NCBI GenBank assembly: GCA_032718475.1
Contig: JAUCBJ010006862.1
Span: forward strand, 1 to 60,459
Origin: Nemertoderma westbladi
Lineage: Eukaryota; Animalia; Xenacoelomorpha
Length of the DNA stretch: 60,459 nucleotides
Reading direction: 5' to 3'
Shown here: positions 2,702 to 29,460 of the stretch, piece by piece
Numbering within the stretch: position 1 is the first letter of the stretch
Layout: each line of letters begins with the position of its first letter
Notes under the pieces: model-generated
The model's database searches: none
What the model was told of the DNA's origin: nothing
What the model saw: only the letters and a program-made list of their open reading frames with translations
Position numbers and translations under genes: made by a program

Positions 2702-2878
2702 TGCTATAACAGGCGAATTCCTATTTAAGTAGATCCAGTGGCCTATCGGTACGAACCCACAAGTACACAATGCAATAAAGGTAACGATACGTTGAATAAA
2801 GGAATCAGATCGCAGTTGGAAGAGCAATACGGCTATACATAAACCGGTAAACACTGTAAGGTAGACAGCCTGTTCCTT
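2702..2878 (-). CDS. PAQR3: PAQR3-like, following exon (177 nt; in-frame alternative acceptor starts it at 2944)
   Basis: TATATTTCAG|AAG GAA CAG gives KEQAVYLTVF...GFVPIGHWIYLNRNSPVIA, then GCA|GTAAGT. GxxPxxHW PAQR motif. Later exons not found, probably left of the window. Confidence 0.85.
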
Positions 2879-2954
2879 CTGAAATATAAGCAATACGGCT
2901 ATACATAAACCGGTAAACACTGTAAGGTAGACAGCCTGTTCCTTCTGAAATATA
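2823..2954. repeat. Exact 66-bp tandem duplication spanning a PAQR3 splice acceptor
   Basis: 2823-2888 equals 2889-2954; minus-strand translation IFQKEQAVYLTVFTGLCIAVLL twice. Confidence 0.97.
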
Positions 2955-3504
2955 ATAATGTGTTTTAGTTTAATAATCACTAATAATAATTTATAGTTTA
3001 ATAAATACAACGCAAATTATTCCCAAATACGACAACTCTAAGGGCTTCACACAAATCTCATTTCGGCGAATTAATATTTTGCCTCAATGTTAAATTACAA
3101 ATTTAGGGAAAAAGGGGCAGTTTACAGTGGCACGTTCTAACCAAAACAATAAACGAAACAGGTTGCAGTTTTATTCTTAGGAGTAATCAGCTGTTATTTG
3201 CGTCGATTTTCCCCTGGAGGGGGATGAATTTTGATTGCGTCGAGAGTTCCCCCTTATCTGCTGGTTGAAGAAAGTAGAAAACAAGTTCATCAAACAGACC
3301 TGTTGTCAGGGAAATGGCAAGAACTTCAATCAGTTCAAAGTATTATCCTTTACTTCCTCGAACGCAATAAAATTACAATCGACAAATTATCACTACATGT
3401 ACGTGCTTTATTCTAAATTAATAGCAAGATTCAAGTAATGAAGTGGAATAAAAGCAAATAGTGACGTAGAAAATTATAAAATATTGAAGGCTATATATAC
3501 TAAC

Positions 3505-3657
3505 GCTGTTGCAATAGAATCCATAGTATATCCCGGGGTAGTAACAACCCAATAAGGCGATACAGATACCCGCCGTATCAATATTAATCCACTTTGTATA
3601 GAAAACATCGGAGTGACAATTAAACACATGGAAACCCACAGAGCATATCATACAAAC
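3505..3657 (-). CDS. PAQR3: PAQR3-like, next exon (153 nt, phase 0/0)
   Basis: TTTACAG|GTTTGTATGATATGC gives VCMICSVGFHVFNCHS...IDTAGICIALLGCYYPGIYYGFYCNS, then AGC|GTTAGT. SxxxH/CHS and DxxGI PAQR motifs; continues in frame from ...ICYQ. Confidence 0.9.
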
Positions 3658-6600
3658 CTGTAAATACAAAAAATATATTATCATACAAACCTGTAAATAC
3701 AAAAAATATATTACCATACAAACCTGTAATTACAAAAAAATATTACCATACAAACCTGTAAATACTATAAATATATTACCATACAAACCTGTAAATACTA
3801 AAAATATATTATCATACAAACCTGTAATTACAAAAAAATATTACCATACAAACCTGTAAATACTATAAATATATTACCATACAAACCTGTAAATACAATA
3901 AATATATTATCATACAAACCTGTAAATACTAAAAATATATTATCATACAAACCTGTAAATACAAAAAATATATTATCATACAAACCTGTAAATACAAAAA
4001 ATATATTATCATACAAACCTGTAAATACAAAAAATATATTACCATACAAACCTGTAAATACAAAAAATATATTATCATACAAACCTGTAAATACAAAAAA
4101 TATATTACCATACAAACCTGTAAATACAATAAATATATTATCATACATCCTGTAAATACAAAAAATATATTACCATACAAACCTGTAATTACAAAAAATA
4201 TTACCATACAAACCTGTAAATACTATAAATATATTACCATACAAACCTGTAAATACAATAAATATATTATCATACATCCTGTAAATACTAAAAATATATT
4301 ATCATACAAACCTGTAATTACAAAAAAATATTACCATACAAACCTGTAAATACTAAAAATATATTATCATACATCCTGTAAATACTAAAAATATATTATC
4401 ATACAAACCTGTAATTACAAAAAAATATTACCATACAAACCTGTAAATACTAAAAATATATTATCATACATCCTGTAAATACTAAAAATATATTATCATA
4501 CAAACCTGTAATTACAAAAAAATATTACCATACAAACCTGTAAATACTAAAAATATATTATCATACAAACCTGTAAATACAAAAAATATATTATCATACA
4601 AACCTGTAAATACAAAAAATATATTACCATACAAACCTGTAAATACAATAAATATATTATCATACATCCTGTAAATACTAAAAATATATTATCATACAAA
4701 CCTGTAAATACAATAAATATATTATCATACATCCTGTAAATACTAAAAATATATTACCATACAAACCTGTAAATACAATAAATATATTATCATACAAACC
4801 TGTAAATACAAAAAATATATTATCATACAAACCTGTAAATACAAAAAATATATTACCATACAAACCTGTAAATACAATAAATATATTATCATACATCCTG
4901 TAAATACTAAAAATATATTACCATACAAACCTGTAAATACAATAAATATATTATCATACAAACCTGTAAATACAATAAATATATTATCATACATCCTGTA
5001 AATACTAAAAATATATTATCATACAAACCTGTAATTACAAAAAAATATTACCATACAAACCTGTAAATACAAAAAATATATTACCATACAAACCTGTAAA
5101 TACAATAAATATATTATCATACATCCTGTAAATACTAAAAATATATTATCATACAAACCTGTAATTACAAAAAAATATTACCATACAAACCTGTAAATAC
5201 AATAAATATATTATCATACAAACCTGTAAATACAAAAAATATATTATCATACAAACCTGTAAATACAAAAAATATATTACCATACAAACCTGTAAATACA
5301 ATAAATATATTATCATACATCCTGTAAATACTAAAAATATATTACCATACAAACCTGTAAATACAATAAATATATTATCATACAAACCTGTAAATACAAT
5401 AAATATATTATCATACATCCTGTAAATACTAAAAATATATTATCATACAAACCTGTAATTACAAAAAAATATTACCATACAAACCTGTAAATACAAAAAA
5501 TATATTACCATACAAACCTGTAAATACAATAAATATATTATCATACAAACCTGTAAATACAAAAAATATATTATCATACAAACCTGTAAATACAAAAAAT
5601 ATATTACCATACAAACCTGTAAATACAATAAATATATTATCATACATCCTGTAAATACTAAAAATATATTACCATACAAACCTGTAAATACAATAAATAT
5701 ATTATCATACAAACCTGTAAATACAATAAATATATTATCATACATCCTGTAAATACTAAAAATATATTATCATACAAACCTGTAATTACAAAAAAATATT
5801 ACCATACAAACCTGTAAATACTAAAAATATATTATCATACAAACCTGTAAATACTAAAAATATATTATCATACAAACCTGTAAATACAATAAATATATTA
5901 TCATACATCCTGTAAATACTAAAAATATATTACCATACAAACCTGTAAATACAATAAATATATTATCATACAAACCTGTAAATACAAAAAATATATTATC
6001 ATACAAACCTGTAAATACAAAAAATATATTACCATACAAACCTGTAAATACAATAAATATATTATCATACATCCTGTAAATACTAAAAATATATTACCAT
6101 ACAAACCTGTAAATACAATAAATATATTATCATACAAACCTGTAAATACAATAAATATATTATCATACATCCTGTAAATACTAAAAATATATTATCATAC
6201 AAACCTGTAATTACAAAAAAATATTACCATACAAACCTGTAAATACAAAAAATATATTACCATACAAACCTGTAAATACAATAAATATATTATCATACAT
6301 CCTGTAAATACTAAAAATATATTATCATACAAACCTGTAATTACAAAAAAATATTACCATACAAACCTGTAAATACTATAAATATATTACCATACAAACC
6401 TGTAAATACAATAAATATATTATCATACAAACCTGTAAATACTAAAAATATATTATCATACAAACCTGTAAATACAAAAAATATATTATCATACAAACCT
6501 GTAAATACAAAAAATATATTATCATACAAACCTGTAAATACAAAAAATATATTACCATACAAACCTGTAAATACAAAAAATATATTATCATACAAACCTG

Positions 6601-9600
6601 TAAATACAAAAAATATATTACCATACAAACCTGTAATTACAAAAAATATTACCATACAAACCTGTAAATACTATAAATATATTACCATACAAACCTGTAA
6701 ATACAATAAATATATTATCATACATCCTGTAAATACTAAAAATATATTATCATACAAACCTGTAATTACAAAAAAATATTACCATACAAACCTGTAAATA
6801 CTAAAAATATATTATCATACAAACCTGTAAATACAAAAAATATATTATCATACAAACCTGTAAATACAAAAAATATATTACCATACAAACCTGTAAATAC
6901 AAAAAATATATTATCATACAAACCTGTAAATACAAAAAATATATTATCATACAAACCTGTAAATACAAAAAATATATTATCATACAAACCTGTAAATACA
7001 AAAAATATATTACCATACAAACCTGTAATTACAAAAAAATATTACCATACAAACCTGTAAATACTATAAATATATTACCATACAAACCTGTAAATACAAT
7101 AAATATATCATCATACATCCTGTAAATACTAAAAATATATTATCATACAAACCTGTAATTACAAAAAAATATTACCATACAAACCTGTAAATACTAAAAA
7201 TATATTATCATACAAACCTGTAAATACAAAAAAATATTATCATACAAACCTGTAAATACTAAAAATATATTATCATACAAACCTGTAAATACTAAAAATA
7301 TATTATCATACAAACCTGTAAATACAAAAAATATATTACCATACAAACCTGTAAATACTAAAAATATATTACCATACAAACCTGTAAATACAATAAATAT
7401 ATTACCATACAAACCTGTAAATACAAAAAATATATTATCATACATCCTGTAAATACTAAAAATATATTATCATACAAACCTGTAATTATAAAAAAATATT
7501 ATCATACAAACCTGTAAATACTAAAAATATATTATCATAAAAACCTGAAAATACTAAAAATATATTATCATACAAACCTGTAAAGACAAAAAATATATTA
7601 TCATACAAACCTGTAAATATAAAAAATATATTATCATACAAACCCGTAAATATAAAAAATATATTATCATACAAACCTGTAAAGACAAAAAATATATTAT
7701 CATACAAACCTGTAAATACAATAAATATATTATCATACAAACCTGTAAATACTAAAAATATATTATCATATAAACCTGTAAAGACAAAAAATATATTATC
7801 ATACAAATCTGTAAATATAAAAAATATATTATCATACAAACCTGTAAATACAATAAATATATTATCATACAAACCTGTAAATACAATAAATATATTATCA
7901 TACAATCCTGTAAATACTAAAAATATATTATCATACAAACCTGTAAATACAAAAATATATTACCATACAAACCTGTAAATACAATAAATATATTATCATA
8001 CATCCTGTAAATACTAAAAATATATTATCATACAAACCTATAATTACAAAAAAATATTACCATACAAACCTGTAAATACAAAAAATATATTATCATACAA
8101 ACCTGTAAATACAAAAAATATATTATCATACATCATGTAAATACTAAAAATATATTATCATACAAACCTGTAATTACAAAAAAATATTACCATACAAACA
8201 TGTAAATACTAAAAATATATTATCATACAAACCTGTAAATACAAAAAATATATTATCATACAAACCTGTAAATACTAAAAATATATTATCATACAAACCT
8301 GTAAATACAAAAAATATATTATCATAAAAACCTGTAAATACAATAAATATATTATCATACATCCTGTAAATACTAAAAATATATTATCATACAAACCTGT
8401 AAATACAAAAAATATATTATCATACAAACCTGTAAATACAATAAATATATTATCATACATCCTGTAAATACTAAAAATATATTATCATACAAACCTGTAA
8501 ATACAAAAAAATATTATCATACAAACCTGTAAATACAAAAAATATATTATCATAAAAACCTGTAAATACTAAAAATATATTATCATACAAACCTGTAAAT
8601 ACAAAAATATATTACCATACAAACCTTTAAATACAAAAAATATATTATCATACAAACCTGTAAATACAAAAAATATATTATCATACATCCTGTAAATACT
8701 AGAAATATATTATCATACAAACCTGTAATTACAAAAAAATATTACCATACAAACCTGTAAATACTAAAAATATATTATCATACAAACCTGTAAATACAAA
8801 AAATATATTATCATACAAACCTGTAAATACAAAAAAATATTATCATACAAACCTGTAAATACAAAAAATATATTATCATACAAACCTGTAAATACAAAAA
8901 AATATTATCATACAAACCTGTAAATACAAAAAATATATTATCATAAAAACCTGTAAATACTAAAAATATATTATCATACAAACCTGTAAATACAAAAATA
9001 TATTACCATACAAACCTTTAAATACAAAAAATATATTATCATACAAACCTGTAAATACAAAAAATATATTATCATACATCCTGTAAATACTAGAAATATA
9101 TTATCATACAAACCTGTAATTACAAAAATATATTATCATACAAACCTGTAAATACTAAAAATATATTATCATACAAACCTGTAAATACAAAAAATATATT
9201 ATCATACAAACCTGTATATACAATAAATATATTATCATACAAACCTGTAATTACAAAAAAATATTACCATACAAACCTGTAAATACTAAAAATATATTAT
9301 CATACAAACCTGTAAATACAAAAAATATATTATCATACAAACCTGTAAATACAAAAAAATATTATCATACAAACCTGTAAATACAAAAAATATATTATCA
9401 TACAAACCTGTAAATACAAAAAAATATTATCATACAAACCTGTAAATACAAAAAATATATTATCATAAAAACCTGTAAATACTAAAAATATATTATCATA
9501 CAAACCTGTAAATACAAAAATATATTACCATACAAACCTTTAAATACAAAAAATATATTATCATACAAACCTGTAAATACAAAAAATATATTATCATACA

Positions 9601-12600
9601 TCCTGTAAATACTAGAAATATATTATCATACAAACCTGTAATTACAAAAATATATTATCATACAAACCTGTAAATACAAAAAATATATTATCATACAAAC
9701 CTGTAAATACAAAAAAATATTATCATACAAACCTGTAAATACAAAAAATATATTATCATACAAACCTGTAAATACAAAAAAATATTATCATACAAACCTG
9801 TAAATACAAAAAATATATTATCATAAAAACCTGTAAATACTAAAAATATATTATCATACAAACCTGTAAATACAAAAATATATTACCATACAAACCTTTA
9901 AATACAAAAAATATATTATCATACAAACCTGTAAATACAAAAAATATATTATCATACATCCTGTAAATACTAGAAATATATTATCATACAAACCTGTAAT
10001 TACAAAAATATATTATCATACAAACCTGTAAATACTAAAAATATATTATCATACAAACCTGTAAATACAAAAAATATATTATCATACAAACCTGTATATA
10101 CAATAAATATATTATCATACATCCTGTAAATACTAAAAATATATTATCATACAAACCTGTAAATACAACAAAATATTATCATACAAACATGTAAATTAAA
10201 AAAATATATTATCATACAATCCTGGAAATACTAAAAATATATTATCATACAAACCTGTAAATACAAAAAAATATTATCATACAAACCTGTAAATACAAAA
10301 AATATATTATCATACAATCCTGTAAATACTAAAAATATATTATCATACAAACCTGTAAATACAAAAAATATATTATCATAAAAACCTGTAAATACTAAAA
10401 ATATATTATCATACAAACCTGTAAATACAAAAATATATTACCATACAAATCTGTAAATACAAAAAATATATTATCATACAAACCTGTAATTACTAAAAAT
10501 ATATTATCATACAATCCTGTAAATACAAAAAATATATTATCATACAAACCTGTAAATACAAAAAATATATTATCATACAAACCTGTAAATACAAAAATAT
10601 ATTACCATACAAACCTGTAAATACAAAAAATATATTATCATACAAACCTGTAATTACTAAAAATATATTATCATACAAACCTGTAAATACAAAAAATATA
10701 TTATCATACATCCTGTAAATACTAAAGATATATTATCATACAAACCTGTAAATACAATAAATATATTATCATACATCCTGTAAATACAAAAAATATATTA
10801 CCATACAAACCTGTAAATACAATAAATATATTATCATACATCTTGTAAATACTAAAAATATATTATCATACAAACCTGTAATTACAAAAAAATATTACCA
10901 TACAAACCTGTAAATACTAAAAATATATTATCATAAAAACCTGTAAATACTAAAAATATATTATCATACAAACCTGTAAATACAAAAAATATATTATCAT
11001 ACATCCTGTAAATACTAAAGATATATTATCATACAAACCTGTAAATACAATAAATATATTATCATACATCCTGTAAATACAAAAAATATATTACCATACA
11101 AACCTGTAAATACAATAAATATATTATCATACATCTTGTAAATACTAAAAATATATTATCATACAAACCTGTAATTACAAAAAAATATTACCATACAAAC
11201 CTGTAAATACTAAAAATATATTATCATAAAAACCTGTAAATACTAAAAATATATTATCATACAAACCTGTAAATACAAAAAATATATTATCATACATCCT
11301 GTAAATACTAAAGATATATTATCATACAAACCTGTAAATACAATAAATATATTATCATACATCCTGTAAATACAAAAAAATATTACCATACAAACCTGTA
11401 AATACTAAAAATATATTATCATAAAAACCTGTAAATACTAAAAATATATTATCATACAAACCTGTAAATACAAAAAATATATTATCATACATCCTGTAAA
11501 TACTAAAGATATATTATCATACAAACCTGTAAATACAATAAATATATTATCATACATCCTGTAAATACAAAAAATATATTACCATACAAACCTGTAAATA
11601 CAATAAATATATTATCATACATCTTGTAAATACTAAAAATATATTATCATACAAACCTGTAATTACAAAAAAATATTACCATACAAACCTGTAAATACTA
11701 AAAATATATTATCATACATCCTGTAAATACTAAAAATATATTATCATACAAACCTGTAAATACAAAAAATATATTATCATACATCCTGTAAATACAAAAA
11801 ATATATTACCATACAAACCTGTAAATACAATAAATATATTATCATACAAACCTGTAATTACAAAAAAATATTATCATACAAACCTGTAAATACAAAAAAA
11901 TATTACCATACAAACCTGTAAATTAAAAAAATATATTATCATACATCCTGTAAATACTAAAAATATATTACCATACAAACCTGTAAATACAAAAAAATAT
12001 TACCATACAAACCTGTAAATACTAAAAATATATTATCATACATCCTGTAAATACTAAAAATATATTATCATACAAACCTGTAAATACAAAAAATATATTA
12101 TCATACATCCTGTAAATACAAAAAATATATTACCATACAAACCTGTAAATACAATAAATATATTATCATACAAACCTGTAATTACAAAAAAATATTATCA
12201 TACAAACCTGTAATTACAAAAAAATATTACCATACAAACCTGTAAATTAAAAAAATATATTATCATACATCCTGTAAATACTAAAAATATATTATCATAC
12301 AAACCTGTAAATACAAAAAAATATTACCATACAAACCTGTAAATACTATAAATATATTACCATACAAACCTGTAAATACAATAAATATATTATCATACAT
12401 CCTGTAAATACTAAAAATATATTATCATACATCCTGTAAATACAAAAAATATATTACCATACAAACCTGTAAATACAATAAATATATTATCATACAAACC
12501 TGTAATTACAAAAAAATATTATCATACAAACCTGTAATTACAAAAAAATATTACCATACAAACCTGTAAATTAAAAAAATATATTATCATACATCCTGTA

Positions 12601-15600
12601 AATACTAAAAATATATTACCATACAAACCTGTAAATACAAAAAAATATTACCATACAAACCTGTAAATACTAAAAATATATTATCATACATCCTGTAAAT
12701 ACTAAAAATATATTATCATACAAACCTGTAAATACAAAAAATATATTATCATACATCCTGTAAATACAAAAAATATATTACCATACAAACCTGTAAATAC
12801 AATAAATATATTATCATACAAACCTGTAATTACAAAAAAATATTATCATACAAACCTGTAATTACAAAAAAATATTACCATACAAACCTGTAAATTAAAA
12901 AAATATATTATCATACATCCTGTAAATACTAAAAATATATTATCATACAAACCTGTAAATACAAAAAAATATTACCATACAAACCTGTAAATACTATAAA
13001 TATATTACCATACAAACCTGTAAATACAATAAATATATTATCATACATCCTGTAAATACTAAAAAAATATTACCATACAAACCTGTAAATACTATAAATA
13101 TATTACCATACAAACCTGTAAATACAATAAATATATTATCATACATCCTGTAAATACTAAAAATATATTATCATACAAACCTGTAAATACAAAAAATATA
13201 TTACCATACAAACCTGTAATTACAAAAAAATATTACCATACAAACCTGTAAATACTAAAAATATATTATCATACAAACCTGTAAATACAAAAAATATATT
13301 ATCATACAAACCTGTAAATACAAAAAATATATTACCATACAAACCTGTAAATACAAAAAATATATTATCATACAAACCTGTAAATACAAAAAATATATTA
13401 TCATACAAACCTGTAAATACAAAAAATATATTACCATACAAACCTGTAATTACAAAAAAATATTACCATACAAACCTGTAAATACTATAAATATATTACC
13501 ATACAAACCTGTAAATACAATAAATATATCATCATACATCCTGTAAATACTAAAAATATATTATCATACAAACCTGTAATTACAAAAAAATATTACCATA
13601 CAAACCTGTAAATACAAAAAATATATTACCATACAAACCTGTAAATACAAAAAATATATTATCATACATCCTGTAAATACTAAAAATATATTATCATACA
13701 AACCTGTAATTATAAAAAAATATTACCATACAAACCTGTAAATACAAAAAATATATTACCATACAAACCTGTAAATACAAAAAATATATTATCATACATC
13801 CTGTAAATACTAAAAATATATTATCATACAAACCTGTAAATACAAAAAAATATTATCATACAAACCTGTAAATACTAAAAATATATTATCATACAAACCT
13901 GTAAATACTAAAAATATATTATCATACAAACCTGTAAATACAAAAAATATATTACAATACAAACCTGTAAATACTAAAAATATATTACCATACAAACCTG
14001 TAAATACAATAAATATATTACCATACAAACCTGTAAATACAAAAAATATATTACCATACAAACCTGTAAATACAAAAAATATATTATCATACATCCTGTA
14101 AATACTAAAAATATATTATCATACAAACCTGTAAATACAAAAAAATATTATCATACAAACCTGTAAATACTAAAAATATATTATCATACAAACCTGTAAA
14201 TACTAAAAATATATTATCATACAAACCTGTAAATACAAAAAATATATTACAATACAAACCTGTAAATACTAAAAATATATTACCATACAAACCTGTAAAT
14301 ACAATAAATATATTACCATACAAACCTGTAAATACAAAAAATATATTATCATACATCCTGTAAATACTAAAAATATATTATCATACAAACCTGTAATTAT
14401 AAAAAAATATTATCATACAAACCTGTAAATACTAAAAATATATTATCATAAAAACCTGAAAATACTAAAAATATATTATCATACAAACCTGTAAAGACAA
14501 AAAATATATTATCATACAAACCTGTAAATACAAAAAATATATTACCATACAAACCTGTAATTACAAAAAAATATTACCATACAAACCTGTAAATACTATA
14601 AATATATTACCATACAAACCTGTAAATACAATAAATATATTATCATACATCCTGTAAATACTAAAAATATATTATCATACAAACCTATAATTACAAAAAA
14701 ATATTACCATACAAACCTGTAAATACAAAAAATATATTATCATACAAACCTGTAAATACAAAAAATATATTATCATACATCATGTAAATACTAAAAATAT
14801 ATTATCATACAAACCTGTAATTACAAAAAAATATTACCATACAAACATGTAAATACTAAAAATATATTATCATACAAACCTGTAAATACAAAAAATATAT
14901 TATCATACAAACCTGTAAATACTAAAAATATATTATCATACAAACCTGTAAATACAAAAAATATATTATCATAAAAACCTGTAAATACAATAAATATATT
15001 ATCATACATCCTGTAAATACTAAAAATATATTATCATACAAACCTGTAAATACAAAAAATATATTATCATACAAACCTGTAAATACAATAAATATATTAT
15101 CATACATCCTGTAAATACTAAAAATATATTATCATACAAACCTGTAAATACAAAAAAATATTATCATACAAACCTGTAAATACAAAAAATATATTATCAT
15201 AAAAACCTGTAAATACTAAAAATATATTATCATACAAACCTGTAAATACAAAAATATATTACCATACAAACCTTTAAATACAAAAAATATATTATCATAC
15301 AAACCTGTAAATACAAAAAATATATTATCATACAAACCTGTAAATACAAAAAATATATTATCATACAAACCTGTAAATACAAAAAATATATTATCATACA
15401 AACCTGTAAATACAAAAAATATATTATCATACATCCTGTAAATACTAGAAATATATTATCATACAAACCTGTAATTACAAAAAAATATTACCATACAAAC
15501 CTGTAAATACTAAAAATATATTATCATACAAACCTGTAAATACAAAAAATATATTATCATACAAACCTGTATATACAATAAATATATTATCATACATCCT

Positions 15601-17256
15601 GTAAATACTAAAAATATATTATCATACAAACCTGTAAATACAACAAAATATTATCATACAAACATGTAAATTAAAAAAATATATTATCATACAATCCTGG
15701 AAATACTAAAAATATATTATCATACAAACCTGTAAATACAAAAAAATATTATCATACAAACCTGTAAATACAAAAAATATATTATCATACAATCCTGTAA
15801 ATACTAAAAATATATTATCATACAAACCTGTAAATACAAAAAATATATTATCATAAAAACCTGTAAATACTAAAAATATATTATCATACAAACCTGTAAA
15901 TACAAAAATATATTACCATACAAACCTGTAAATACAAAAAATATATTATCATACAAACCTGTAATTACTAAAAATATATTATCATACAATCCTGTAAATA
16001 CAAAAAATATATTATCATACAAACCTGTAAATACAAAAAATATATTATCATACAAACCTGTAAATACAAAAATATATTACCATACAAACCTGTAAATACA
16101 AAAAATATATTATCATACAAACCTGTAATTACTAAAAATATATTATCATACAAACCTGTAAATACAAAAAATATATTATCATAAAAACCTGTAAATACTA
16201 AAAATATATTATCATACAAACCTGTAAATACAAAAAATATATTATCATACATCCTGTAAATACTAAAGATATATTATCATACAAACCTGTAAATACAATA
16301 AATATATTATCATACATCCTGTAAATACTAAAAATATATTATCATACAAACCTGTAAATACAAAAAATATATTATCATACATCCTGTAAATACTAAAGAT
16401 ATATTATCATACAAACCTGTAAATACAATAAATATATTATCATACATCCTGTAAATACTAAAAATATATTATCATACAAACCTGTAAATACAAAAAATAT
16501 ATTATCATACATCCTGTAAATACAAAAAATATATTACCATACAAACCTGTAAATACAATAAATATATTATCATACAAACCTGTAATTACAAAAAAATATT
16601 ATCATACAAACCTGTAATTACAAAAAAATATTACCATACAAACCTGTAAATTAAAAAAATATATTATCATACATCCTGTAAATACTAAAAATATATTACC
16701 ATACAAACCTGTAAATACAAAAAAATATTACCATACAAACCTGTAAATACTAAAAATATATTATCATACATCCTGTAAATACTAAAAATATATTATCATA
16801 CAAACCTGTAAATACAAAAAATATATTATCATACATCCTGTAAATACAAAAAATATATTACCATACAAACCTGTAAATACAATAAATATATTATCATACA
16901 AACCTGTAATTACAAAAAAATATTATCATACAAACCTGTAATTACAAAAAAATATTACCATACAAACCTGTAAATTAAAAAAATATATTATCATACATCC
17001 TGTAAATACTAAAAATATATTATCATACAAACCTGTAAATACAAAAAAATATTACCATACAAACCTGTAAATACTAAAAATATATTATCATACATCCTGT
17101 AAATACTAAAAATATATTATCATACAAACCTGTAAATACAAAAAAATATTATCATACAAACCTGTAAATACAAAAAATATATTATCATACAATCTTGTAA
17201 ATACTAAAAATATATTACCATACAAACCTGTAAATACTAAAAATATATTATCATAC
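3646..17256. repeat. 32-33-bp tandem array (left block); unit = PAQR3 splice acceptor plus exon start
   Basis: + strand unit TATCATACAAACCTGTAAATACAAAAAATATAT with variants (acc/atc, catcctg, taatta, caata, acta). Confidence 0.98.
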
Positions 17257-17258
17257 TC

Positions 17259-17777
17259 GCTCATTCGGGTCCTCCAGTATCGGTTGGTGGTCAGTCGAGT
17301 CCCGGAGTGTCGGTTGGTGCTCAGTCCGGTCCCCCAGTGTCGGTTGGTGCTCAGTCGGGTGGTACTCAGTCGGGTCAACCTGTGTCGGTTGGTGCTCCGT
17401 CTGGTCTACCTGTGCCGGTTGGTGCTCAGTCGGGTCCCCCAGTGTCGGTTGGTGCTCAGTTGGGTCCCATCATGCCGGTTGGTGCTCAGTCGGGTCAACG
17501 TGTGTCGGTTGGTGCTCAGTCGGGTCAACCTGTGCCGGTTGGTGCTCAGTCGGGTCCCCCAGTGTCGGTTGGTGCTCAGTCGGGTCCCCCAGTGTCGGTT
17601 GGTGCTCAGTCGGGTAAACCTGCGGCGGTTGGCGCGCAGTCCGGTCACCCAGTGTCGGTTGGTGCTCGGTCGGGTCAACCTGTGTCTGTTGGTGCTCAGT
17701 CGGGTCCCCCAGTATCGGCTGATGCTCAGTCTGGTCGACCTTCGGCGGTTGGTGCTCAGTCCGGTCCCCCAGTGTCG
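17259..17777 (+). repeat. 30-bp coding tandem repeat, about 17 units, VSVGAQSG(P/Q)P
   Basis: Unit CGGTTGGTGCTCAGTCGGGTCCCCCAGTGT and variants. Confidence 0.95.
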
Positions 17778-20666
17778 CCAAACACTACAGTGCCTCCTAC
17801 CGCCAGGGGGCACGGGTCTAATGCTGTTGCCTGGTTTGGGACCAGCTTACATTTAGACGTGTTCGCCGAATCAGTCCATAAGGTGCACGACGCGATCGTA
17901 CATTGGCGCCCCAACCTATTCCTCCTACCCCCCGGTGCGATCGGACGCGAAGTGGTTCAGGAGATGACTCGGCTGCTAAATATGTTTAATGCAGGGTCAC
18001 TATCTGGCGAGGCGGCGCTCACCGCGCAATTTATCTTACCCGCTCTGCTGCTACAGAAGCCCAGCCGCACTTCAACCACCGCGACCCACCGGAGAATTCT
18101 AGAACGCCGTATTTCTTCGTGGAAGTCAGGCGAGATTATCGAGCTGTTTAACGAGGCCAGGGCCATACAATCCCACCTCCCAAAGGTTTCGGCCCGGGCC
18201 AAACAACTCAGGAATACCGCGGCGGAGAGGGCTTTCTGTAAGCATATGTTAACGGGAAACGTTTCTGCGGCAGTGCGTACGCTGGATGAGATGGCCAAGG
18301 GTCAAGTGTTGAACCTGGATGAGGTAATCACCGACAAACATGGGGTTCGCAAGTCGGTTCGCGAGTTCCTCCTGGACAAACACCCCCCTCCAGCTCCAGC
18401 CCACGAGTCCACCCTTATCGGTGAGTCTGATGACGCTCCCGAATATCACAGCGTCATATTCGAGAGGATAGACGCTCAGTTGATCCAATCGATGTTTCTG
18501 CGCTTCCGGGGAACAGCAGGAGGGCCATCTGGTCTCGATGTCCAGGGCTGGAAGCACCTCGCGACACGGTTCCGCAACCCTTCTGTCGACCTGTGCACCA
18601 GCATCGCAAATACGGCGAAGAGGATGGCCCAATCTTCGAATGACCCGCGCGAGCTGGCATCCTTGCTAGCCGCCCGTCTCGTCGCTATCGATAAGTGTCC
18701 CGGGGTCCGCCCAATAGGAGTCGGAGAGGTCTTGCGGAGGGTCATCGGGAAGGCTATCATTAGCTGTATCTCGGAGGATCTCCAGAGCGTGGGCGGTACC
18801 ACCCAGATGTGCTGCGGCCAGAAGGCAGGTATCGAGCACGCCATCCACAGCCTGAATGACGCGTTTGCGAGCGACGACTGCGAGGCGGTGCTGCAGGTGG
18901 ACGCGAACAACGCGTTCAACTCGTTGAACCGCGCCGCAGCACTGCACAATATCCGCCATGTCTGTCCCTCTCTCCACACCGTTGTATCGAACTGTTACTC
19001 CCTCCCAACGAAGCTTTACATAGGCGGGGAGTTCATATTATCGGCCGAAGGATCAACCCAGGGCGACCCCATTGCTATGCAGATGTACGCAATGGGATCG
19101 ATGCCGCTGATCGGCGAGCTGGACGACGCGTCGGAGGTCCTTCAGAAGTGGTATGCCGATGACGCGAACGCGGCGGGAACATTGGTAGAGCTCCGTAAGT
19201 TCTGGGACCTGTTGGCGGAACGAGGGCCGCTGTACGGTTACAACCCCACAAAGTGTCACTTGCTCGTAAAGCCGGATCTGCTGGAGGAAGCTAAGCGGAT
19301 GTTCCCCGAGGAATGTTTTACCATCGGGACTGCTGGGAACAATCTCCTCGGTGGAGTGATCGGGAACGCTGAGTACCGGGAGGAGTTCGTCCGGAAGAAG
19401 GTCGACGAGTTTGTCGCCCAGTTACATCAACTCAGCAAGGTCGCAGCAATCGACCCGCACTGTGCCTACGCCGGCCTAGCTATCGGATTAGTTGCTCGAT
19501 GGAGGTTCATCGCAAGGGTTGTCCCGGGGGCCATGGATTTCTTCGAGAAGCTCGAGGAGTCCGTCGTCCAGTTCCTCCAGGGCCTGACCAACCGCCCCGT
19601 CATCACTCCCGAGGAGCGCGGGCTGCTCTCGCTACCAGTTCGCCACGGCGGGCTAGCGATCCCGACTCCCGAGGACTTACGAATCGAAAACGGCAACTCC
19701 AGGTGGATCTGCGAACCGTTTACTGAGGTCGTGGAACCGGTCGCTATAAGGGAGGCGCAAAAGTTCATCGCCACCCGGATCAAGGCGAGGGCCGTGCCGG
19801 CACTGAAGGAGAAGGTGGAGTCGGTTAGTTCGGACCTACCCGAGAATCAACGGAGGTTGACGGAGCTCGTGGCGGAACCTGGCGCCTCGGCCTGGCTCAA
19901 CGCGCGCCCCATAACCCTCCACGATACCCACCTAACTAAAGAGGAGTTCCGCGACGCATTGTGTCTGCGTTATGGGTGGCAGCCCGAGTCGCTCCCAGCC
20001 CGTTGTGCCTGTGGGACAAGATTTTCAACAAACCACATCTTGTCTTGTCCCACCGGCGGTTACCCGTCAATTAGGCACAACGAGCTCCGGGATTTCGTCG
20101 CCACAACGTTAACCGAGGTCGCTCATAACGTTGCCATCGAGCCGCACCTGCAGCCAATCACCGGCGAGCAGTTCTCCCGCACGTCCACTTCCGTGGACCA
20201 ACAAGCTCGGTTGGACGTGTCGGTCTCCGGGTTCTGGGGGAATCGATATCAAAAGACGTACATAGATGTATCCGTCTTCAACCCCCTCGCCCCGACCAAC
20301 GCCGCAATGGACGTCGACGCAGCCCACCTATTCCACGAAACCCGGAAACGCAACAAATATCTGGAACGGATCCGGGAAGTCGAGCACGCCACGTTCACCC
20401 CGCTGATATTCTCAGCGTTGGGGGGAATATCTCCCTCCACGACGCTGTTCGTGAAGCACCTCGCTTCAAAGCTGGCGGACCGGCGCGAGCTGCGCTACTC
20501 GGAGTGCGTGAGCTGGGTGCGGAGGCAGTTCAGCTTCGCGCTGCTGCGGGCCTCCCTGATGTGCATAAGAGGGTCGAGATCGGCACGGAAACGCCCAGTA
20601 TTTGTTGGGGCAGAAGCATCGCCGTCCATCTTGCTGGCCAACGCCGACACAAGGGTGGGACAGTAG
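17307..20666 (+). CDS. Retrotransposon ORF: decapeptide repeat, reverse transcriptase, CCHC knuckle, restriction-like endonuclease
   Basis: VRPIGVGEVLRR, DANNAFNSLNR, GSTQGDP, WYADD; CACGTRFSTNHILSC, RHN, E, RLD, D, KRNKY, FTPLIFSALGG. Frame is open from the element 5' junction and has no ATG there. Confidence 0.93.
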   Translation: MSVGAQSGPPVSVGAQSGGTQSGQPVSVGAPSGLPVPVGAQSGPPVSVGAQLGPIMPVGAQSGQRVSVGAQSGQPVPVGAQSGPPVSVGAQSGPPVSVGAQSGKPAAVGAQSGHPVSVGARSGQPVSVGAQSGPPVSADAQSGRPSAVGAQSGPPVSPNTTVPPTARGHGSNAVAWFGTSLHLDVFAESVHKVHDAIVHWRPNLFLLPPGAIGREVVQEMTRLLNMFNAGSLSGEAALTAQFILPALLLQKPSRTSTTATHRRILERRISSWKSGEIIELFNEARAIQSHLPKVSARAKQLRNTAAERAFCKHMLTGNVSAAVRTLDEMAKGQVLNLDEVITDKHGVRKSVREFLLDKHPPPAPAHESTLIGESDDAPEYHSVIFERIDAQLIQSMFLRFRGTAGGPSGLDVQGWKHLATRFRNPSVDLCTSIANTAKRMAQSSNDPRELASLLAARLVAIDKCPGVRPIGVGEVLRRVIGKAIISCISEDLQSVGGTTQMCCGQKAGIEHAIHSLNDAFASDDCEAVLQVDANNAFNSLNRAAALHNIRHVCPSLHTVVSNCYSLPTKLYIGGEFILSAEGSTQGDPIAMQMYAMGSMPLIGELDDASEVLQKWYADDANAAGTLVELRKFWDLLAERGPLYGYNPTKCHLLVKPDLLEEAKRMFPEECFTIGTAGNNLLGGVIGNAEYREEFVRKKVDEFVAQLHQLSKVAAIDPHCAYAGLAIGLVARWRFIARVVPGAMDFFEKLEESVVQFLQGLTNRPVITPEERGLLSLPVRHGGLAIPTPEDLRIENGNSRWICEPFTEVVEPVAIREAQKFIATRIKARAVPALKEKVESVSSDLPENQRRLTELVAEPGASAWLNARPITLHDTHLTKEEFRDALCLRYGWQPESLPARCACGTRFSTNHILSCPTGGYPSIRHNELRDFVATTLTEVAHNVAIEPHLQPITGEQFSRTSTSVDQQARLDVSVSGFWGNRYQKTYIDVSVFNPLAPTNAAMDVDAAHLFHETRKRNKYLERIREVEHATFTPLIFSALGGISPSTTLFVKHLASKLADRRELRYSECVSWVRRQFSFALLRASLMCIRGSRSARKRPVFVGAEASPSILLANADTRVGQ

Positions 20667-20753
20667 AGTCAGGAACTCATACCGGTATCATAAACAATTT
20701 CAAAATCAGTTTGGTTATTTTATATTATTTAATTCCCTTGTATGGTTTAAAAA

Positions 20754-23700
20754 AAAAATATATTATCATACAAACCTGTAAATACAAAAAATATATTACC
20801 ATACAAACCTGTAAATACTAAAAATATATTATCATACAAACCTGTAAATACAAAAAATATATTATCATACATCCTGTAAATACAAAAAATATATTACCAT
20901 ACAAACCTGTAAATACAATAAATATATTATCATACATCCTGTAAATACAAAAAATATATTACCATACAAACCTGTAAATACAATAAATATATTATCATAC
21001 ATCCTGTAAATACTAAAAATATATTATCATACATCCTGTAAATACTAAAAATATATTATCATACAAACCTGTAAATACAAAAAATATATTATCATACAAA
21101 CCTGTAAATACAAAAAATATATCATCATACAAACCTGTAAATACAATAAATATATTATCATACATCCTGTAAATACAAAAAATATATTATCATACAAACC
21201 TGTAAATACAAAAAAATATTATCATACAAACCTGTAAATACAAAAAAATATTACCATACAAACCTGTAAATACAAAAAATATATTATCATACAAACCTGT
21301 AAATACTAAAAATATATTATCATACAAACCTGTAAATACAAAAAATATATTATCATACATCCTGTAAATACAAAAAATATATTACCATACAAACCTGTAA
21401 ATACAAAAAATATATTATCATACAATCCTGTAAATACTAAAAATATATTATCATACAAACCTGTAAATACAAAAAAGATATTATCATAAAAACCTGTAAA
21501 TACTAAAAATATATTATCATACAAACCTGTAAATACAAAAATATATTACCATACAAACCTGTAAATACAAAAAATATATTATCATACAAACCTGTAATTA
21601 CTAAAAATATATTATCATACAATCCTGTAAATACAAAAAATATATTATCATACAAACCTGTAAATACAAAAAATATATTATCATACAAACCTGTAAATAC
21701 AAAAATATATTACCATACAAACCTGTAAATACAAAAAATATATTATCATACAAACCTGTAATTACTAAAAATATATTATCATACAAACCTGTAAATACAA
21801 AAAATATATTATCATAAAAACCTGTAAATACTAAAAATATATTATCATACAAACCTGTAAATACAATAAATATATTATCATACATCCTGTAAATACTAAA
21901 AATATATTATCATACAAACCTGTAAATACAATAAATATATTATCATACATCCTGTAAATACAAAAAATATATTACCATACAAACCTGTAAATACAATAAA
22001 TATATTATCATACATCCTGTAAATACTAAAAATATATTATCATACAAACCTGTAATTACAAAAAAATATTACCATACAAACCTGTAAATACTAAAAATAT
22101 ATTATCATACATCCTGTAAATACTAAAAATATATTATCATACAAACCTGTAAATACAAAAAATATATTATCATACATCCTGTAAATACAAAAAATATATT
22201 ACCATACAAACCTGTAAATACAATAAATATATTATCATACAAACCTGTAATTACAAAAAAATATTATCATACAAACCTGTAATTACAAAAAATATATTAT
22301 CATACAAACCTGTAAATACAAAAAATATATTATCATACAAACCTGTAAATACAAAAATATATTACCATACAAACCTGTAAATACAAAAAATATATTATCA
22401 TACAAACCTGTAATTACTAAAAATATATTATCATACAAACCTGTAAATACAAAAAATATATTATCATAAAAACCTGTAAATACTAAAAATATATTATCAT
22501 ACAAACCTGTAAATACAATAAATATATTATCATACATCCTGTAAATACTAAAAATATATTATCATACAAACCTGTAAATACAATAAATATATTATCATAC
22601 ATCCTGTAAATACAAAAAATATATTACCATACAAACCTGTAAATACAATAAATATATTATCATACATCCTGTAAATACTAAAAATATATTATCATACAAA
22701 CCTGTAATTACAAAAAAATATTACCATACAAACCTGTAAATACTAAAAATATATTATCATACATCCTGTAAATACTAAAAATATATTATCATACAAACCT
22801 GTAAATACAAAAAATATATTATCATACATCCTGTAAATACAAAAAATATATTACCATACAAACCTGTAAATACAATAAATATATTATCATACATCCTGTA
22901 AATACTAAAAATATATTATCATACAAACCTGTAATTACAAAAAAATATTACCATACAAACCTGTAAATATAAAAAATATATTATCATACAAACCTGTAAA
23001 TACTAAAAATATATTATCATACAAACCTGTAATTACAAAAAAATATTATCATACAAACCTGTAATTACAAAAAAATATTACCATACAAACCTGTAAATTA
23101 AAAAAATATATTATCATACATCCTGTAAATACTAAAAATATATTACCATACAAACCTGTAAATACAAAAAAATATTACCATACAAACCTGTAAATACTAA
23201 AAATATATTATCATACATCCTGTAAATACTAAAAATATATTATCATACAAACCTGTAAATACAAAAAATATATTATCATACATCCTGTAAATACAAAAAA
23301 TATATTACCATACAAACCTGTAAATACAATAAATATATTATCATACAAACCTGTAATTACAAAAAAATATTATCATACAAACCTGTAATTACAAAAAAAT
23401 ATTACCATACAAACCTGTAAATACAATAAATATATTATCATACATCCTGTAAATACTAAAAATATATTATCATACAAACCTGTAAATACAAAAAAATATT
23501 ATCATACAAACCTGTAAATACAAAAAATATATTATCATACAATCTTGTAAATACTAAAAATATATTATCATACAAACCTGTAAATACAAAAAAATATTAC
23601 CATACAAACCTGTAAATACTAAAAATATATTATCATACATCCTGTAAATACTAAAAATATATTATCATACAAACCTGTAAATACAAAAAAATATTATCAT

Positions 23701-26396
23701 ACAAACCTGTAAATACAAAAAATATATTATCATACAATCTTGTAAATACTAAAAATATATTACCATACAAACCTGTAAATACTAAAAATATATTATCATA
23801 CAAACCTGTAAATACAAAAAATATATTACCATACAAACCTGTAAATACTAAAAATATATTATCATACAAACCTGTAAATACAAAAAATATATTATCATAC
23901 ATCCTGTAAATACAAAAAATATATTACCATACAAACCTGTAAATACAATAAATATATTATCATACATCCTGTAAATACAAAAAATATATTACCATACAAA
24001 CCTGTAAATACAATAAATATATTATCATACATCCTGTAAATACTAAAAATATATTATCATACATCCTGTAAATACTAAAAATATATTATCATACAAACCT
24101 GTAAATACAAAAAATATATTATCATACAAACCTGTAAATACAAAAAATATATCATCATACAAACCTGTAAATACAATAAATATATTATCATACATCCTGT
24201 AAATACAAAAAATATATTATCATACAAACCTGTAAATACAAAAAAATATTATCATACAAACCTGTAAATACAAAAAAAATATTACCATACAAACCTGTAA
24301 ATACAAAAAATATATTATCATACAAACCTGTAAATACAAAAAATATATTATCATACAAACCTGTAAATACAAAAAATATATTATCATACAAACCTGTAAA
24401 TACAAAAAATATATTATCATACAAACCTGTAAATACAATAAATATATTATCATACATCCTGTAAATACTAAAAATATATTATCATACAAACCTGTAAATA
24501 CAAAAAATATATTATCATACATCCTGTAAATACAAAAAATATATTACCATACAAACCTGTAAATATAATAAATATATTATCATACATCCTGTAAATACTA
24601 AAAATATATTATCATACAAACCTGTAATTACAAAAAAATATTACCATACAAACCTGTAAATACTAAAAATATATTATCATACATCCTGTAAATACTAAAA
24701 ATATATTATCATACAAACAAACCTGTAAATACAAAAAAATATTACCATACAAACCTGTAAATACAAAAAATATATTATCATACAAACCTGTAAATACAAA
24801 AAATATATTATCATACAAACCTGTAAATACAAAAAATATATTATCATACAAACCTGTAAATACAAAAAATATATTACCATACAAACCTGTAAATACAATA
24901 AATATATTACCATACAAACCTGTAAATACAATAAATATATTATCATACATCCTGTAAATACTAAAATTATATTATTATACAAACCTGTAATTACAAAAAC
25001 ATATTACCATACAAACCTGTAAATACTAAAAATATATTATCATACATCCTGTAAATACTAAAAATATATTATCATACAAACCTGTAAATACAAAAAATAT
25101 ATTACCATACAAACCTGTAAATACAATAAATATATTATCATACATCCTGTAAATACTAAAATTATATTATTATACAAACCTGTAATTACAAAAAAATATT
25201 ACCATACAAACCTGTAAATACTAAAAATATATTATCATACATCCTGTAAATACTAAAAATATATTATCATACAAACAAACCTGTAAATACAAAAAATATA
25301 TTATCATACAAACCTGTAAATACAAAAAATATATTATCATACAAACCTGTAAATACAAAAAATATATTGTCATACATCCTGTAAATACAAAAAATATATT
25401 ACCATACAAACCTGTAAATACAATAAATATATTATCATACATCCTGTAAATACAAAAAATATATTATCATACAACCCTGTAAATACAAAAAAATATTATC
25501 ATACAAACCTGTAAATACAAAAAATATATTACCATACAATCCTGTAAATACAAAAAATATATTATCATACAAACCTGTAAATACAAAAAAATATATTACC
25601 ATATAAACCTGTAAATACAAAAATATATTACCATACAAACCTGTAATTACAAAAAATATATTATCATACAAACCTGTAAATAAAAAAAATATATTATCAT
25701 ACATCCTGTAAATACAAAACATATATTACCATACAAACCTGTAAATACAAAAAATCGATTACCATACAAACCTGTAAATACAATAAATATATTATCATAA
25801 AAACCTGTAAATACTAAAAATATATTATCATACAAACCTGTAAATACAAAAAATATATTACCATACAAACCTGTAAATACAAAAAATCGATTACCATACA
25901 AACCTGTAAATACAATAAATATATTATCACAAAAACCTGTAAATACTAAAAATATATTATCATACAAACCTGTAAATACAAAAAATATATTACCATACAA
26001 ACCTGTAAATACAAAAAATCGATTACCATAAAAACCTGTAAATACTAAAAATATATTACCATACAAACCTGTAAATACAAAAAATATATTACCATACAAA
26101 CCTGTAAATACATAAAATATATTATCATACAAACCTGTAAATACAATAAATATAATATCATAAAAACCTGTAAATACAAAAAATATATTACCATACAAAC
26201 CTGTAAATTCAATAAATATATTACCATACAAACCTGTAAATACAATAAATATATTATCATACAAACCTGTAAATACAATAAATATATTATCATACAAACC
26301 TGTAAATACAAAAAATATATTACCATACAAACCTGTAAATACAATAAATATATTATCATACATACCTGTAAATACAAAATATATATTATCATACAA
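20754..26396. repeat. 32-33-bp tandem array (right block), decaying to about 26450
   Basis: Same unit resumes after the retrotransposon tail; more divergent units (aatcgatt etc.) at the distal end. Confidence 0.98.
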
Positions 26397-26454
26397 AAAT
26401 ATATTATATTATACAAACTTTTAAAGTAAATACTAAAATACATCATGCAAACAA

Positions 26455-28185
26455 ATACTACTTCTACTACGATCGGCATGCTGCATTGCAGCTGCATTAA
26501 GAATGCTGTGCCGGCTTGTCGACAAAATTGCGCCGCTACAACTCCCTATCACCCGTGACATTTGCTAGATCATCCGCTTCTTCAAGGCCAGTGTCTCAAG
26601 AAAGTAATGGGCTGTCCACCATGGCTATTCACTCCATGAGGCTGCCAAAGTACAAGATTATGCACTGGCTGGTCCTCACGGCGAAAGCAATGTCCCGCAA
26701 AACGGAGGCGGCTTTGTTCTAGTGTCAAGCTTGGGGGAACCAATGAGACACCTCCAATGTTATGTAGTGACTGGTTGGAGATGTGTGCATTGTAATGGAC
26801 ACAGTGAACCCGGCGTAGCATTATTGTGAATGTGACATTCAGAGATTTGGTGTCCTCAGCAGTTAGAGCCCAGCATGGACTCCCATAGAGGAGTACTGGA
26901 ACTACTGCTGCTCTAAATAATCGGACCTTAAGTTTCCGATTAATTCTATGTGTACTTCCAAATCCTGGAAAGCCTATTCAAGGCTGCCCATTCCTTTCCC
27001 TTACGTATTCGAATGTCCTCACCTGACTTCCGGATCCATGATCCCAGGTAACAGAAGTCGTCCACATGCTGAAGCATATCATCCTTTGAGCTTATGCTCA
27101 TCCAATCAGAGACTTGCTAAGGACTTTCAAAGTTAACTGTCAAAATGTTGGACTTTTTGGAGTTGATAAAAAGACCAACACTAGAAGCATCCTGTTCTAA
27201 TGAGCTGAGGAGCCGTTGGGCTCCTTTTAGTGATTCTGAGAATACTCTAAGTCATCAGCAAAGTCTAGATCAGTTAGGTACTTGGCAAGATTTCCTCGAC
27301 TTCTGGAGCCAGTAGGTGGAGTTACCATCATCCCATCATCATTATGATGATCTAAGGACTTGCGTTGAACATAGTCAACCACATTTATGAACAAAAATGG
27401 CGCAAGTGTGACTCCCTGGAGGACTCCCCATAACACTTCAAAAGGTTTTGTGTCACCGTCAACAGTAGACACAAATGTTGTCGAACCATCATAATACTGA
27501 TCTGATTGTTAAAATAATTTGATCAGGAATCCCATATAATGAAAGTATACTGAACATACGTGAGCGAGAGACTGAATCAAAGGCCTTGAAGAAGTCAACA
27601 AAGATAACAGCCAGATGCTTATCTTTCTTTTTTGATAACTCTTCAATTATCCTTCTAAGTGCCAAAATGGACACCATGGTCCCACGACCCTTACGGAACA
27701 CATTCTGATTTCCACGGAGCAGTCTCTCAATGGGATCCCTAATGCGATTTAATATAATTCTATTGTATAGCTTTGCAGCAATCGAGATCAATGAGATTCC
27801 CCGAAAAGAACCATAGAGTGTTAGGTTGCCCTTCTTGGGAACTGGCACCAACTTATTTGTTTTAATTTCTTGTGGGACTCTTGTTGTACGGTACATGTCT
27901 ACTATGATGGGATAGATGAGCTTTAAACACTCAGGTATTTTAAAGACCTCAGGGGCCCAAAGACTATCTACTCCACGGGCACTGGCACGATTGGTCTTAA
28001 TGCTCTTTGCAGCAGCTTTGACTTCTGCAAAGGAGATATCGCCAATGGGAATATCTGGGAGTACAGACTCGGACACTTTTACTTCTATAAAGTTATCAGA
28101 CAATACCCTGTTATTTTTGAGGAGCTTTTCAAAGTGGGCCTTCCAACCATTGAGGATTGAGGCGATCGGCTGGTGATTCTGCCGA
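26455..28185 (-). mobile_element. Degenerate 5'-truncated RTE-like LINE with (TAG)n-like tail
   Basis: VPVPKKGNL...FRGISLISIAAKLYNRI, FVDFFKAFDSV, GVLQGVTLAPFLF, DLDFADD in broken frames; tail GTAGTAGAAGTAGTA abuts the array. Confidence 0.9.
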
Positions 28186-29204
28186 CCAAACAAATACTTT
28201 AATACGATAAGGAAAGGGAGGGTGAAAGTCATGCAAGCCGGTCAAGCCTGGGCTAGGCTAGGCTGTTCGCAATTCCAAGTCTTGTTAACCGAAAAATGAT
28301 GAAGTTTCTTATCTTGATGGAGAAATGATTTGCAAGTTTGAAGAACAGGTGGTTGTTACTGTCCAATCCGCTAATTATTAATAAATTATTTCACAATATA
28401 TATTAATAACTTTTGCTATTTGGTTTTCAAGGAATACGTAATATTTTGTGTTTCACATATTGCCTTTTCCCCTCCCTTGCTCGCTTTATAGGACTACTCT
28501 AGTACAAGTTAACTATCGAGCCTCCACCATGGGTTTATTGGATATATGCTGTGGTCCATTCAGGGCCGGATCCAGGAATTTAATTTCTATGGTGCGCGCA
28601 AATTGTGAAGTTTATCTTTTGGTCTGAGGGCGCTGCCCCAGCTGTGTCCGGGGGGCAGAGCCCCTGTTGCCCTGGTGGGGGTAAAGGGGGCGGACTCCAA
28701 CCCCGAATTTTATTTAGATTTTAATATAAAAATTTTGATGCAAAAATAATAAAATGTTTCAATCGTTTATCTTACATTTTCTATTGATTATTGATAATTT
28801 TCGATAACTAAAAATATTTTTTAAAAATGTTACAATATTTATTTTACTAATTTAACGATGGGTACTAACACATCCTCGGATTCAGGTATTGGAATTCTTC
28901 TTGACAAACGATCAATGGAGGCCGTGTCACTTGCGTGCGTCATAGTACAAAATGGAAGTAATAGTTGAGGAAGAGGAAGGTGAGGTCTCTCTTTTTCTTT
29001 TAGCCCAACTTGGCTCCACATATTTAATATTTAAAGGATTGGCAGTTATTAATTCTAGGAGATGAAATTATGATCATTTCTTTAAATCATAGGCCTATAT
29101 ATTAAATAGTAATTAGTAAGTAATTACTATAACTAATAAGTAGCTTGGCCTAGTGGTGACATTCCTGGGCTTCCAGGGCTTTTAAAAGCTGCAGCCTAGC
29201 CCAA

Positions 29205-29460
29205 CCCAGGGAGGACCAGCCAGTGCATAATCTTGTGCTTTCGGCCTCAGTGAGTGAATAAGCATGGTAGACAGCCCATGACATTCTTGAGACGCATCAT
29301 AAAGGAAACTGGCCGGGAAGATGCGGATGATCTAGCAAATGTCATGGGTGATAGGGAGTTGTGGCGGTGCAACTTTGTCGACAAGCCGGCAAAGCATTCT
29401 TAATATATGTAATATACATATAATGCAGCTGCAGTGCAGCATGCCGATTGTAGTAGTAGT
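29205..29460 (+). mobile_element. Short RTE-like 3' fragment with (TAG)n tail
   Basis: GAGGACCAGCCAGTGCATAATCTTG...CATGCCGATTGTAGTAGTAGT, matching 1130-1355. Confidence 0.85.

Follow-up and report, generated by a model that had tools for sequence, protein, structure and literature searches.

How the spliceosome selects one acceptor among look-alikes during transcription is an open question, and the choice among similar acceptors has been described as still not understood (PMC11451613). A stretch of DNA from Nemertoderma westbladi (contig JAUCBJ010006862.1, 60,459 nt, hereafter the window) poses this question in an extreme form. It carries a PAQR3-like gene on its minus strand, and intron 2 of this gene holds an array of copies of its own acceptor. 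Ahead of the right acceptor, at distances of up to 22.7 kb, stand about 570 near-identical intact ones, most of which could also act as donors; a correct mRNA is nevertheless produced. The array offers a natural extreme test of exon definition versus recursive splicing, and is likely a harmless, unusually large case of a known repeat type.

Anatomy and origin of the acceptor array

Tandem Repeats Finder (TRF) reported one 33-bp array at 3646-26397. Segmentation of both arms gave 589 units (417 + 172, excluding the insert between them) and a total satellite length of 19.3 kb; 370 units (63%) are 33 bp long, 213 are 32 bp and six have other lengths. Read on the minus strand, a unit consists of 21 bases of intron end, a T-rich tract closing on CAG, followed by the first 12 bases of exon 3, which encode V-C-M-I. 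The terminal unit (3646-3678) spans the true junction at 3658/3657, and 115 of the 589 units are identical to it: the commonest unit is the true intron-2/exon-3 junction itself. An earlier inspection of the letters alone (the sequence-only reading) had seen about 590 copies of the gene's own acceptor, which agrees with this count; two of its details needed correction, as the gap inside the array (17257-20758) is a retrotransposon and exon 2 lies at 29747-29585.

The units are similar rather than uniform. We counted 73 distinct unit sequences with a mean identity of 94.9% to the terminal unit, and G+C content is about 19% across the array region, except at 17-21 kb. Of the 769 AG dinucleotides in the array, 569 belong to CAG junctions, the true one included; some 20 of the 589 units have lost CAG. 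The two letters that follow CAG are GT at 448 junctions, GA at 118 and others at three. Not every unit is an AG|GT site, then: about a fifth of the junctions (121/569), spread in duplicated blocks, lack GT and cannot serve as donors. The sequence-only reading had also proposed that joining exon 2 to a unit would build a CAG|GTTTGT donor; exon 2 does end in CAG, but AG|GT units already read CAG|GTTTGT in the unspliced RNA. As the units were copied from few founders, per-position counts are uninformative on selection for AG or GT.

Higher-order structure was evident, with identical blocks of up to 22 units recurring at long offsets, versus 4-5 units in 20 shuffles. This pattern of concerted evolution is accompanied by a divergent edge, which is degenerate at about 26400-26440, and no unit-like sequence (<=8 mismatches in 33) was found elsewhere in the window. 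At the first-transcribed edge, degenerate unit-like sequence runs on to about 26440, the first junction (26366/26365) reads CAG|GTATGT, and an 11-base exon-start word recurs one unit upstream of the first AG (26365-26440). This word is either a decayed unit or a microhomology that seeded the first duplication.

The two arms are separated by a 3.5-kb, 5'-truncated retrotransposon of the type that lacks long terminal repeats (non-LTR), inserted antisense to the gene. Its frame is open to a stop at 20666, it ends in poly(A) at 20749-20758, and it is flanked by a target-site duplication of 13-18 bp. Together with reverse transcriptase (RT), CCHC finger and endonuclease motifs, these are the features of non-LTR elements with a restriction-like endonuclease (RLE). 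The RT match (RVT_1, E 2.3e-05) lies below the curated cut-off and the other motifs were recognized by pattern matching; the element has 591 relatives at E<=1e-20, and we presume that its clade is CRE-like. Its N-terminal part contains a 30-bp coding repeat (17259-17777). A block of 21 units that straddles the insertion point recurs intact at 23566, indicating that the element entered an existing array. RLE elements are described as often targeting repeats (PMC4640811).

We compared the window over 2400-3690 with contigs from three DNA runs, X1, X2 and X3, which stem from two samples and two studies; X2 and X3 share one sample, which may be the source of the window. Summed contig depth at 3676-3690 was 10,807 in X1, 35,286 in X2 and 675 in X3, where cover was uneven; single-copy depth was 8-16, 23-30 and 4-30, respectively. 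Summed depth is not a copy number and gives an order of magnitude only: X1 and X2 hold the unit at about 1000x single-copy summed depth, the same order as the 1,700-2,840x obtained in a crude unitig simulation of the array. X1 comes from a different sample than X2 and X3, differs from the window at 6 of 336 bases near exon 2, and contains a single-copy exon-3 contig that runs directly into the array (end at 3675). That runs from two studies both carry the unit at very high depth argues that the array is no assembly artefact. The idea that an assembler over-expanded a short repeat can draw on the fact that the exact array length comes from the window alone. Yet the 73 unit variants sit in long-range duplicated blocks, an insert with its target-site duplication lies within the array, and the depth in raw-derived contigs of both studies is of the order simulated. 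Artefact is therefore unlikely, and we give this explanation next to no weight.

To place the array in the history of the gene, we turned to its homologues. The three exons found in the window (Pfam HlyIII) join into 164 stop-free codons, as had been noted earlier for the exons that flank the array. Neither exon 1 nor any exon past exon 4 was found in the window with a profile of 16 homologues and motif searches. An exon-2 search listed 150 relatives, of which 33 also match exon 3 and 117 match exon 2 only. Cys-Met stands at exon-3 codons 2-3 in 26 of the 33 homologues covering both exons, QVCML occurs in 10 of them, and 101 of the 117 exon-2-only frames have Val at the same codon, as expected from read-through into a GT donor. 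We infer from these comparisons that ancestral coding sequence makes up the unit's exon half, that intron 2 is old, and that AG|GT at the junction is a by-product of Gln-Val codons. Given the conserved exon half and an intron position common to about 100 homologues, the array would have grown out of the junction. Intron gain by tandem duplication of AGGT, a route that the sequence-only reading had brought up, is rejected, as the 101 of 117 frames that continue with Val at this codon mark the intron position as ancient. Searching with the exon-3 protein gave one distant match, and a metagenome scan for exon-3 relatives gave seven loci, none with a comparable intron.

Splicing of intron 2

A fourth run, X4, is recorded as 'DNA?' and comes from a sample (S3) other than those of the DNA runs; we treated it as RNA, since two GT..AG introns are missing from its contig. 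In this contig (1047 nt, depth 106), letters 730-885 lie on 3505-3660, and 2879-3504, with ends CT..AC, is skipped. A contig of equal length and depth places letters 881-1047 on 29583-29749, and its loose end matches window 3626-3655; the two placements were taken as one RNA contig. Exon 2 (29585) is joined directly to the last-transcribed acceptor (3657) at adjacent letters 883 and 882, and the frame is kept. The stretch common to the direct form and a form longer by 33 bases is only 15 bases, so the words across the direct junction must stem from reads. This is the only X4 contig on exon 2 (1/1). The gene is thus expressed and correctly spliced in the one transcript seen, and the sequence-only reading anticipated correctly that the last-transcribed acceptor is the right one and that the array is tolerated. 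No X4 cover was found at 3676-3690, in introns or at the junction of a 66-bp duplication at exon 4. Because rare variants are lost in contig assembly, this missing cover is no evidence against recursive intermediates or minor isoforms. At its other end the contig stops at the exon-2 acceptor (29747-29749) without a loose end, which suggests a branch there, with more than one upstream exon or a retained intron.

We think it quite probable that the array arose by amplification of the 33-base junction, that the contig uses its last copy, and that the whole is a neutral satellite of the 'mirage' type, which leaves the transcript along with the intron, mostly in a single step. The junction would first have been duplicated, leaving a spare copy on the intron side, after which multi-unit blocks would have been copied repeatedly via slippage or unequal exchange, the retrotransposon inserting later. 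The region is prone to tandem duplication, and we count the several others in the window (37, 65, 66, 68 and 700 bp) in favour of this account. The single contig has exon 2 spliced to the acceptor adjacent to exon 3. Local sequence does not explain this choice, because 115 units are identical to the true one and each AG has a branch-point-like motif 20-23 nt before it. The exon-adjacent acceptor would win as the only one with a real exon body, which can be defined and paired with its donor. The internal mini-exons are A/U-rich and likely lack enhancers; G+C content is 40% in the 153-nt exon 3 versus 19% in the array. These features suggest that the acceptor may be chosen via exon definition with enhancers. 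Of the two modes that had been proposed for this gene, recursive splicing or exon definition that ignores the decoys, the second fits the data and has precedent in mirages, CBS 844ins68 and F7 intron 7, described below.

Errors in acceptor choice would mostly go unseen. Among the 13 nearest upstream acceptors, two would lengthen the protein by 11 or 22 residues with the frame kept, and the other 11 would shift the frame; internal acceptor-donor pairs within 300 nt (pairs up to 8 junctions apart) number 3,491, of which 303 preserve the frame and contain no stop. These frame outcomes suggest that most errors, presumably rare, are degraded, and that the array would in this way escape selection.

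Several points weigh against removal in one step past ignored decoys. On the RNA side there is a single contig, from one sample that may differ at the array, and assembly into contigs drops rare variants; the mature junction would be identical under recursive removal. The modal unit matches the U1 consensus at 9/11 positions, versus 7/11 for the exon-3 donor. The geometry of the 3,491 pairs allows internal use, and the decoys are transcribed as much as 22.7 kb ahead of the true site. Finally, the longest GT-only runs are the array ends, covering the first 20 and the last 15 junctions, with the next longest at 14; these runs could reflect selection. Mirage edges have been reported to escape homogenisation (PMC3087553).

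One rival is recursive removal, in which exon 2 would first be joined to an internal AG|GT unit with a donor 33-300 nt downstream, the rebuilt donor would be reused, and splicing would jump onward to exon 3. We regard this as unlikely, though it is the strongest of the alternatives. In its favour, the 25.9-kb intron holds 448 CAG|GT sites, each in the YAG|GT form of recursive sites in long introns and preceded by a pyrimidine tract and, at about 20-23 nt, by a branch-point-like motif. The rebuilt donor beats the exon-3 donor in U1 match, and the first-transcribed junction has the best match of all (10/11), the first 20 junctions all having GT. Recursive sites require a downstream cryptic donor, which defines a recursive-splicing exon or RS-exon (PMC8605326); judged by sequence only, from the 3,491 pairs, every unit offers one. 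In human introns of median length 10 kb, 3,022 recursive sites are reported (10.64898/2026.09.10.750672). Known ratchet points are described as ultraconserved single sites (PMC8605326), whereas within the array 121 of 569 junctions are dead ends that lack GT and have been amplified. AG|GT moreover follows from the Gln-Val codons, which 10 of 33 homologues share. Joining exon 2 to exon 3 also restores this donor at the final junction, yet the contig keeps exon 3, indicating that the donor can be suppressed after splicing. Such suppression is described for exons protected by the exon junction complex, an effect not seen in Drosophila (PMC6224609).

We therefore see no sign of the selected recursive or decoy function that the sequence-only reading had entertained: junctions that have lost GT have spread in duplicated blocks, and AG|GT is accounted for by the codons. 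Internal units may still be used recursively at some level; such removal might then be a side effect that corrects itself and is not under selection, with no adaptive role. A bolder version holds that exon 2 often joins an internal AG|GT unit cotranscriptionally and is re-spliced onward, and that a selfish satellite of the gene's own acceptor could reach 19 kb only through such repair of its errors. We rate it slightly lower still than recursive removal as such; if true, expansion of a repeat would have given rise to recursive splicing de novo, and a single intron would contain hundreds of ratchet points that can stand in for one another.

The sample behind the transcript raises another possibility: the allele with the array could be slightly deleterious or weakly expressed, and the correctly spliced contig could stem from an allele or individual whose array is short or absent. 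Sample S3 does differ from those of the DNA runs, minisatellites of this kind are described as varying in length between haplotypes (PMC3087553), and the array-to-single-copy ratio in X3 is far below that in X1 and X2. X3, however, is the same sample as X2 and unevenly covered; the unit stands at about 1000x in two samples from two studies, one of which differs at 6 of 336 bases and has its exon-3 contig continuing into the array (3675); and the exons are intact. We consider this explanation improbable.

Least credible among the biological alternatives is a selected decoy or tuning device, in which unproductive splicing of part of the transcripts, or isoforms with 11 or 22 additional residues, would set the PAQR3 level; we judge it very improbable. 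The two nearest acceptors (3690 and 3723) are in frame and stop-free while the next 11 are not, and the frame is likewise kept by the other duplicated acceptor of the gene, that of exon 4. With 63% of units at 33 bp, two in-frame neighbours are unremarkable; the sole X4 contig on exon 2 has the direct junction, and unit turnover resembles ordinary satellite turnover.

Relation to known splice-site repeats

Tandem repeats across exon-intron boundaries are known from amphioxus as 'mirages', in Adh3, the globins BflGb6 and BflGb9, troponin C and PGBD5. They are described as leaving splicing regular, with many but not all units keeping AG/GT, and the BflGb6 mirage has 3 and 6 units (PMC3087553, PMC3902484). 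The N. westbladi array has the same properties. Its unit runs across an exon-intron boundary, joining intron end and next exon start in tandem, with the polarity of BflGb6, and homologues and the search of the window place its origin in the gene's own junction rather than in an inserted satellite. Many but not all units keep AG/GT (569/589 with CAG, 448 with AG|GT), and a regular mRNA is made, as seen in one contig from one sample. Unit length falls within the 10-72 bp range given for Adh3, concerted evolution and divergent edges are shared, and PGBD5 likewise has more than one mirage per gene. The differences lie in the 589 units and 19.3 kb, compared with 2-7 units in the mirages described (the Adh3 copy number not included), and in the block-level higher-order structure and inserted retrotransposon.

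Two human loci are similar on a small scale. In CBS c.844_845ins68 a segment running from the end of the intron across the 3' splice site into the exon is duplicated, and the upstream copy is spliced out (PMC7490669). This is nearly the same anatomy as the 66-bp exon-4 duplication; unlike the array, it has two copies, with a few divergent bases. The 37-bp variable number tandem repeat of F7 intron 7 presents 5-9 identical donors, functional when tested, of which only the exon-adjacent one is used (PMC1557585). As in the array, its terminal unit spans the exon/intron boundary. It differs in lying on the donor side, in its 5-9 copies, and in that the used site is the first transcribed there and the last here.

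Recursive sites and RS-exons (PMC8605326, PMC6224609) share with the array AG|GT behind a pyrimidine tract, a long intron and a downstream donor, and exon 3 rebuilds a donor after splicing as RS-exons do. Those sites are single, conserved and demonstrated by intermediates, whereas the array comprises hundreds of young copies, a fifth of them without GT, known here from sequence and one mature contig. The intron-gain model (in PMC3087553) also involves tandem duplication across AG|GT, but the duplication here crosses an existing ancient junction and creates no intron.

Together, these comparisons identify the array as a mirage minisatellite, a known repeat type, unusual in its scale: 589 units versus 2-9 in the mirages and analogues cited here, or about 100 times the published copy number. 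We found none of comparable size in the literature on acceptor arrays, splice-site variable number tandem repeats, mirages and satellite giant introns, a survey with most subscription papers outside its scope. As it stands, the array is a much larger example of a known repeat type and reveals no new mechanism.

Other features of the gene and the window

Coordinates of the gene, the array and the other annotated features are collected in Table 1.

Table 1. Annotated features of the 60,459-nt window, in order of position.
Feature	Positions	Strand	Evidence
Exon 4, 177 nt as joined in the X4 contig	2702..2878	-	Joint 2878-3505, ends CT..AC; profile independent E-value 3.3e-07
Exon-4 acceptor in two exact tandem copies of 66 bp (roughly 10 intron and 56 exon bases each)	2823..2955	-	TRF; junction in DNA run X3
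Exon 3, 153 nt, starts V-C-M-I, donor AGC|GTTAGT	3505..3657	-	HlyIII E 3.1e-09; X4 contig
Array, last-transcribed segment, 417 units	3646..17256	-	TRF, segmentation
Intron 2, 25,927 nt, GT..AG, phase 0, position conserved in homologues	3658..29584	-	Absent from the X4 contig
Non-LTR retrotransposon, 5'-truncated, 3.5 kb, antisense to the gene	17257..20758	+	RT with YADD, CCHC finger, restriction-like endonuclease motifs
Array, first-transcribed segment, 172 units	20759..26397	-	Segmentation
Decayed second retroelement, RT fragments, between exon 2 and array	26472..28241	-	RVT_1 E 4.2e-13 for 27492-28241
Exon 2, 163 nt, ends CAG, donor GTAAGA next	29585..29747	-	HlyIII E 4.6e-07; covered exactly by the X4 contig
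Alpha-tubulin acetyltransferase-like, long single open frame	33816-35639	-	Pfam; 21-bp x 24 coding repeat 34289-34800
SH3-SH2 adaptor, long single open frame	37516-38172	+	Pfam
MGAT4-like, long single open frame	43825-45339	+	Pfam
SET/PR protein, long single open frame	58256-59854	-	Pfam

The duplicated exon-4 acceptor reads as a second, two-copy mirage in the same gene, so that two of the six splice junctions mapped in the gene are duplicated, both of them acceptors. Splicing to the upstream copy, at 2945/2944, would lengthen the product by 22 codons without a frameshift or a stop. The 66-bp duplication is collapsed in X2, yet X3, from the same sample, holds its junction; given this collapse, the X4 contig does not tell which exon-4 acceptor is used. 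In intron 3, a short repeat at 3060-3279 occurs at very high copy (summed depth >10^5 in the DNA runs). On the other side of the array, about 90 nt upstream of the exon-2 acceptor, a 37-bp unit is repeated 8.8 times at 29836-30161; on the gene strand the unit contains a pyrimidine run ending in CAG, and no exon is linked to it.

Sequences similar to the decayed retroelement lie at 806-1354 and 42202-43038. A 700-bp tandem duplication with 99.7% identity occupies 996-2395 and includes a retroelement fragment, and further minisatellites were found at 39268-39854 (65 bp x 9) and 49623-50975 (68 bp x 20).

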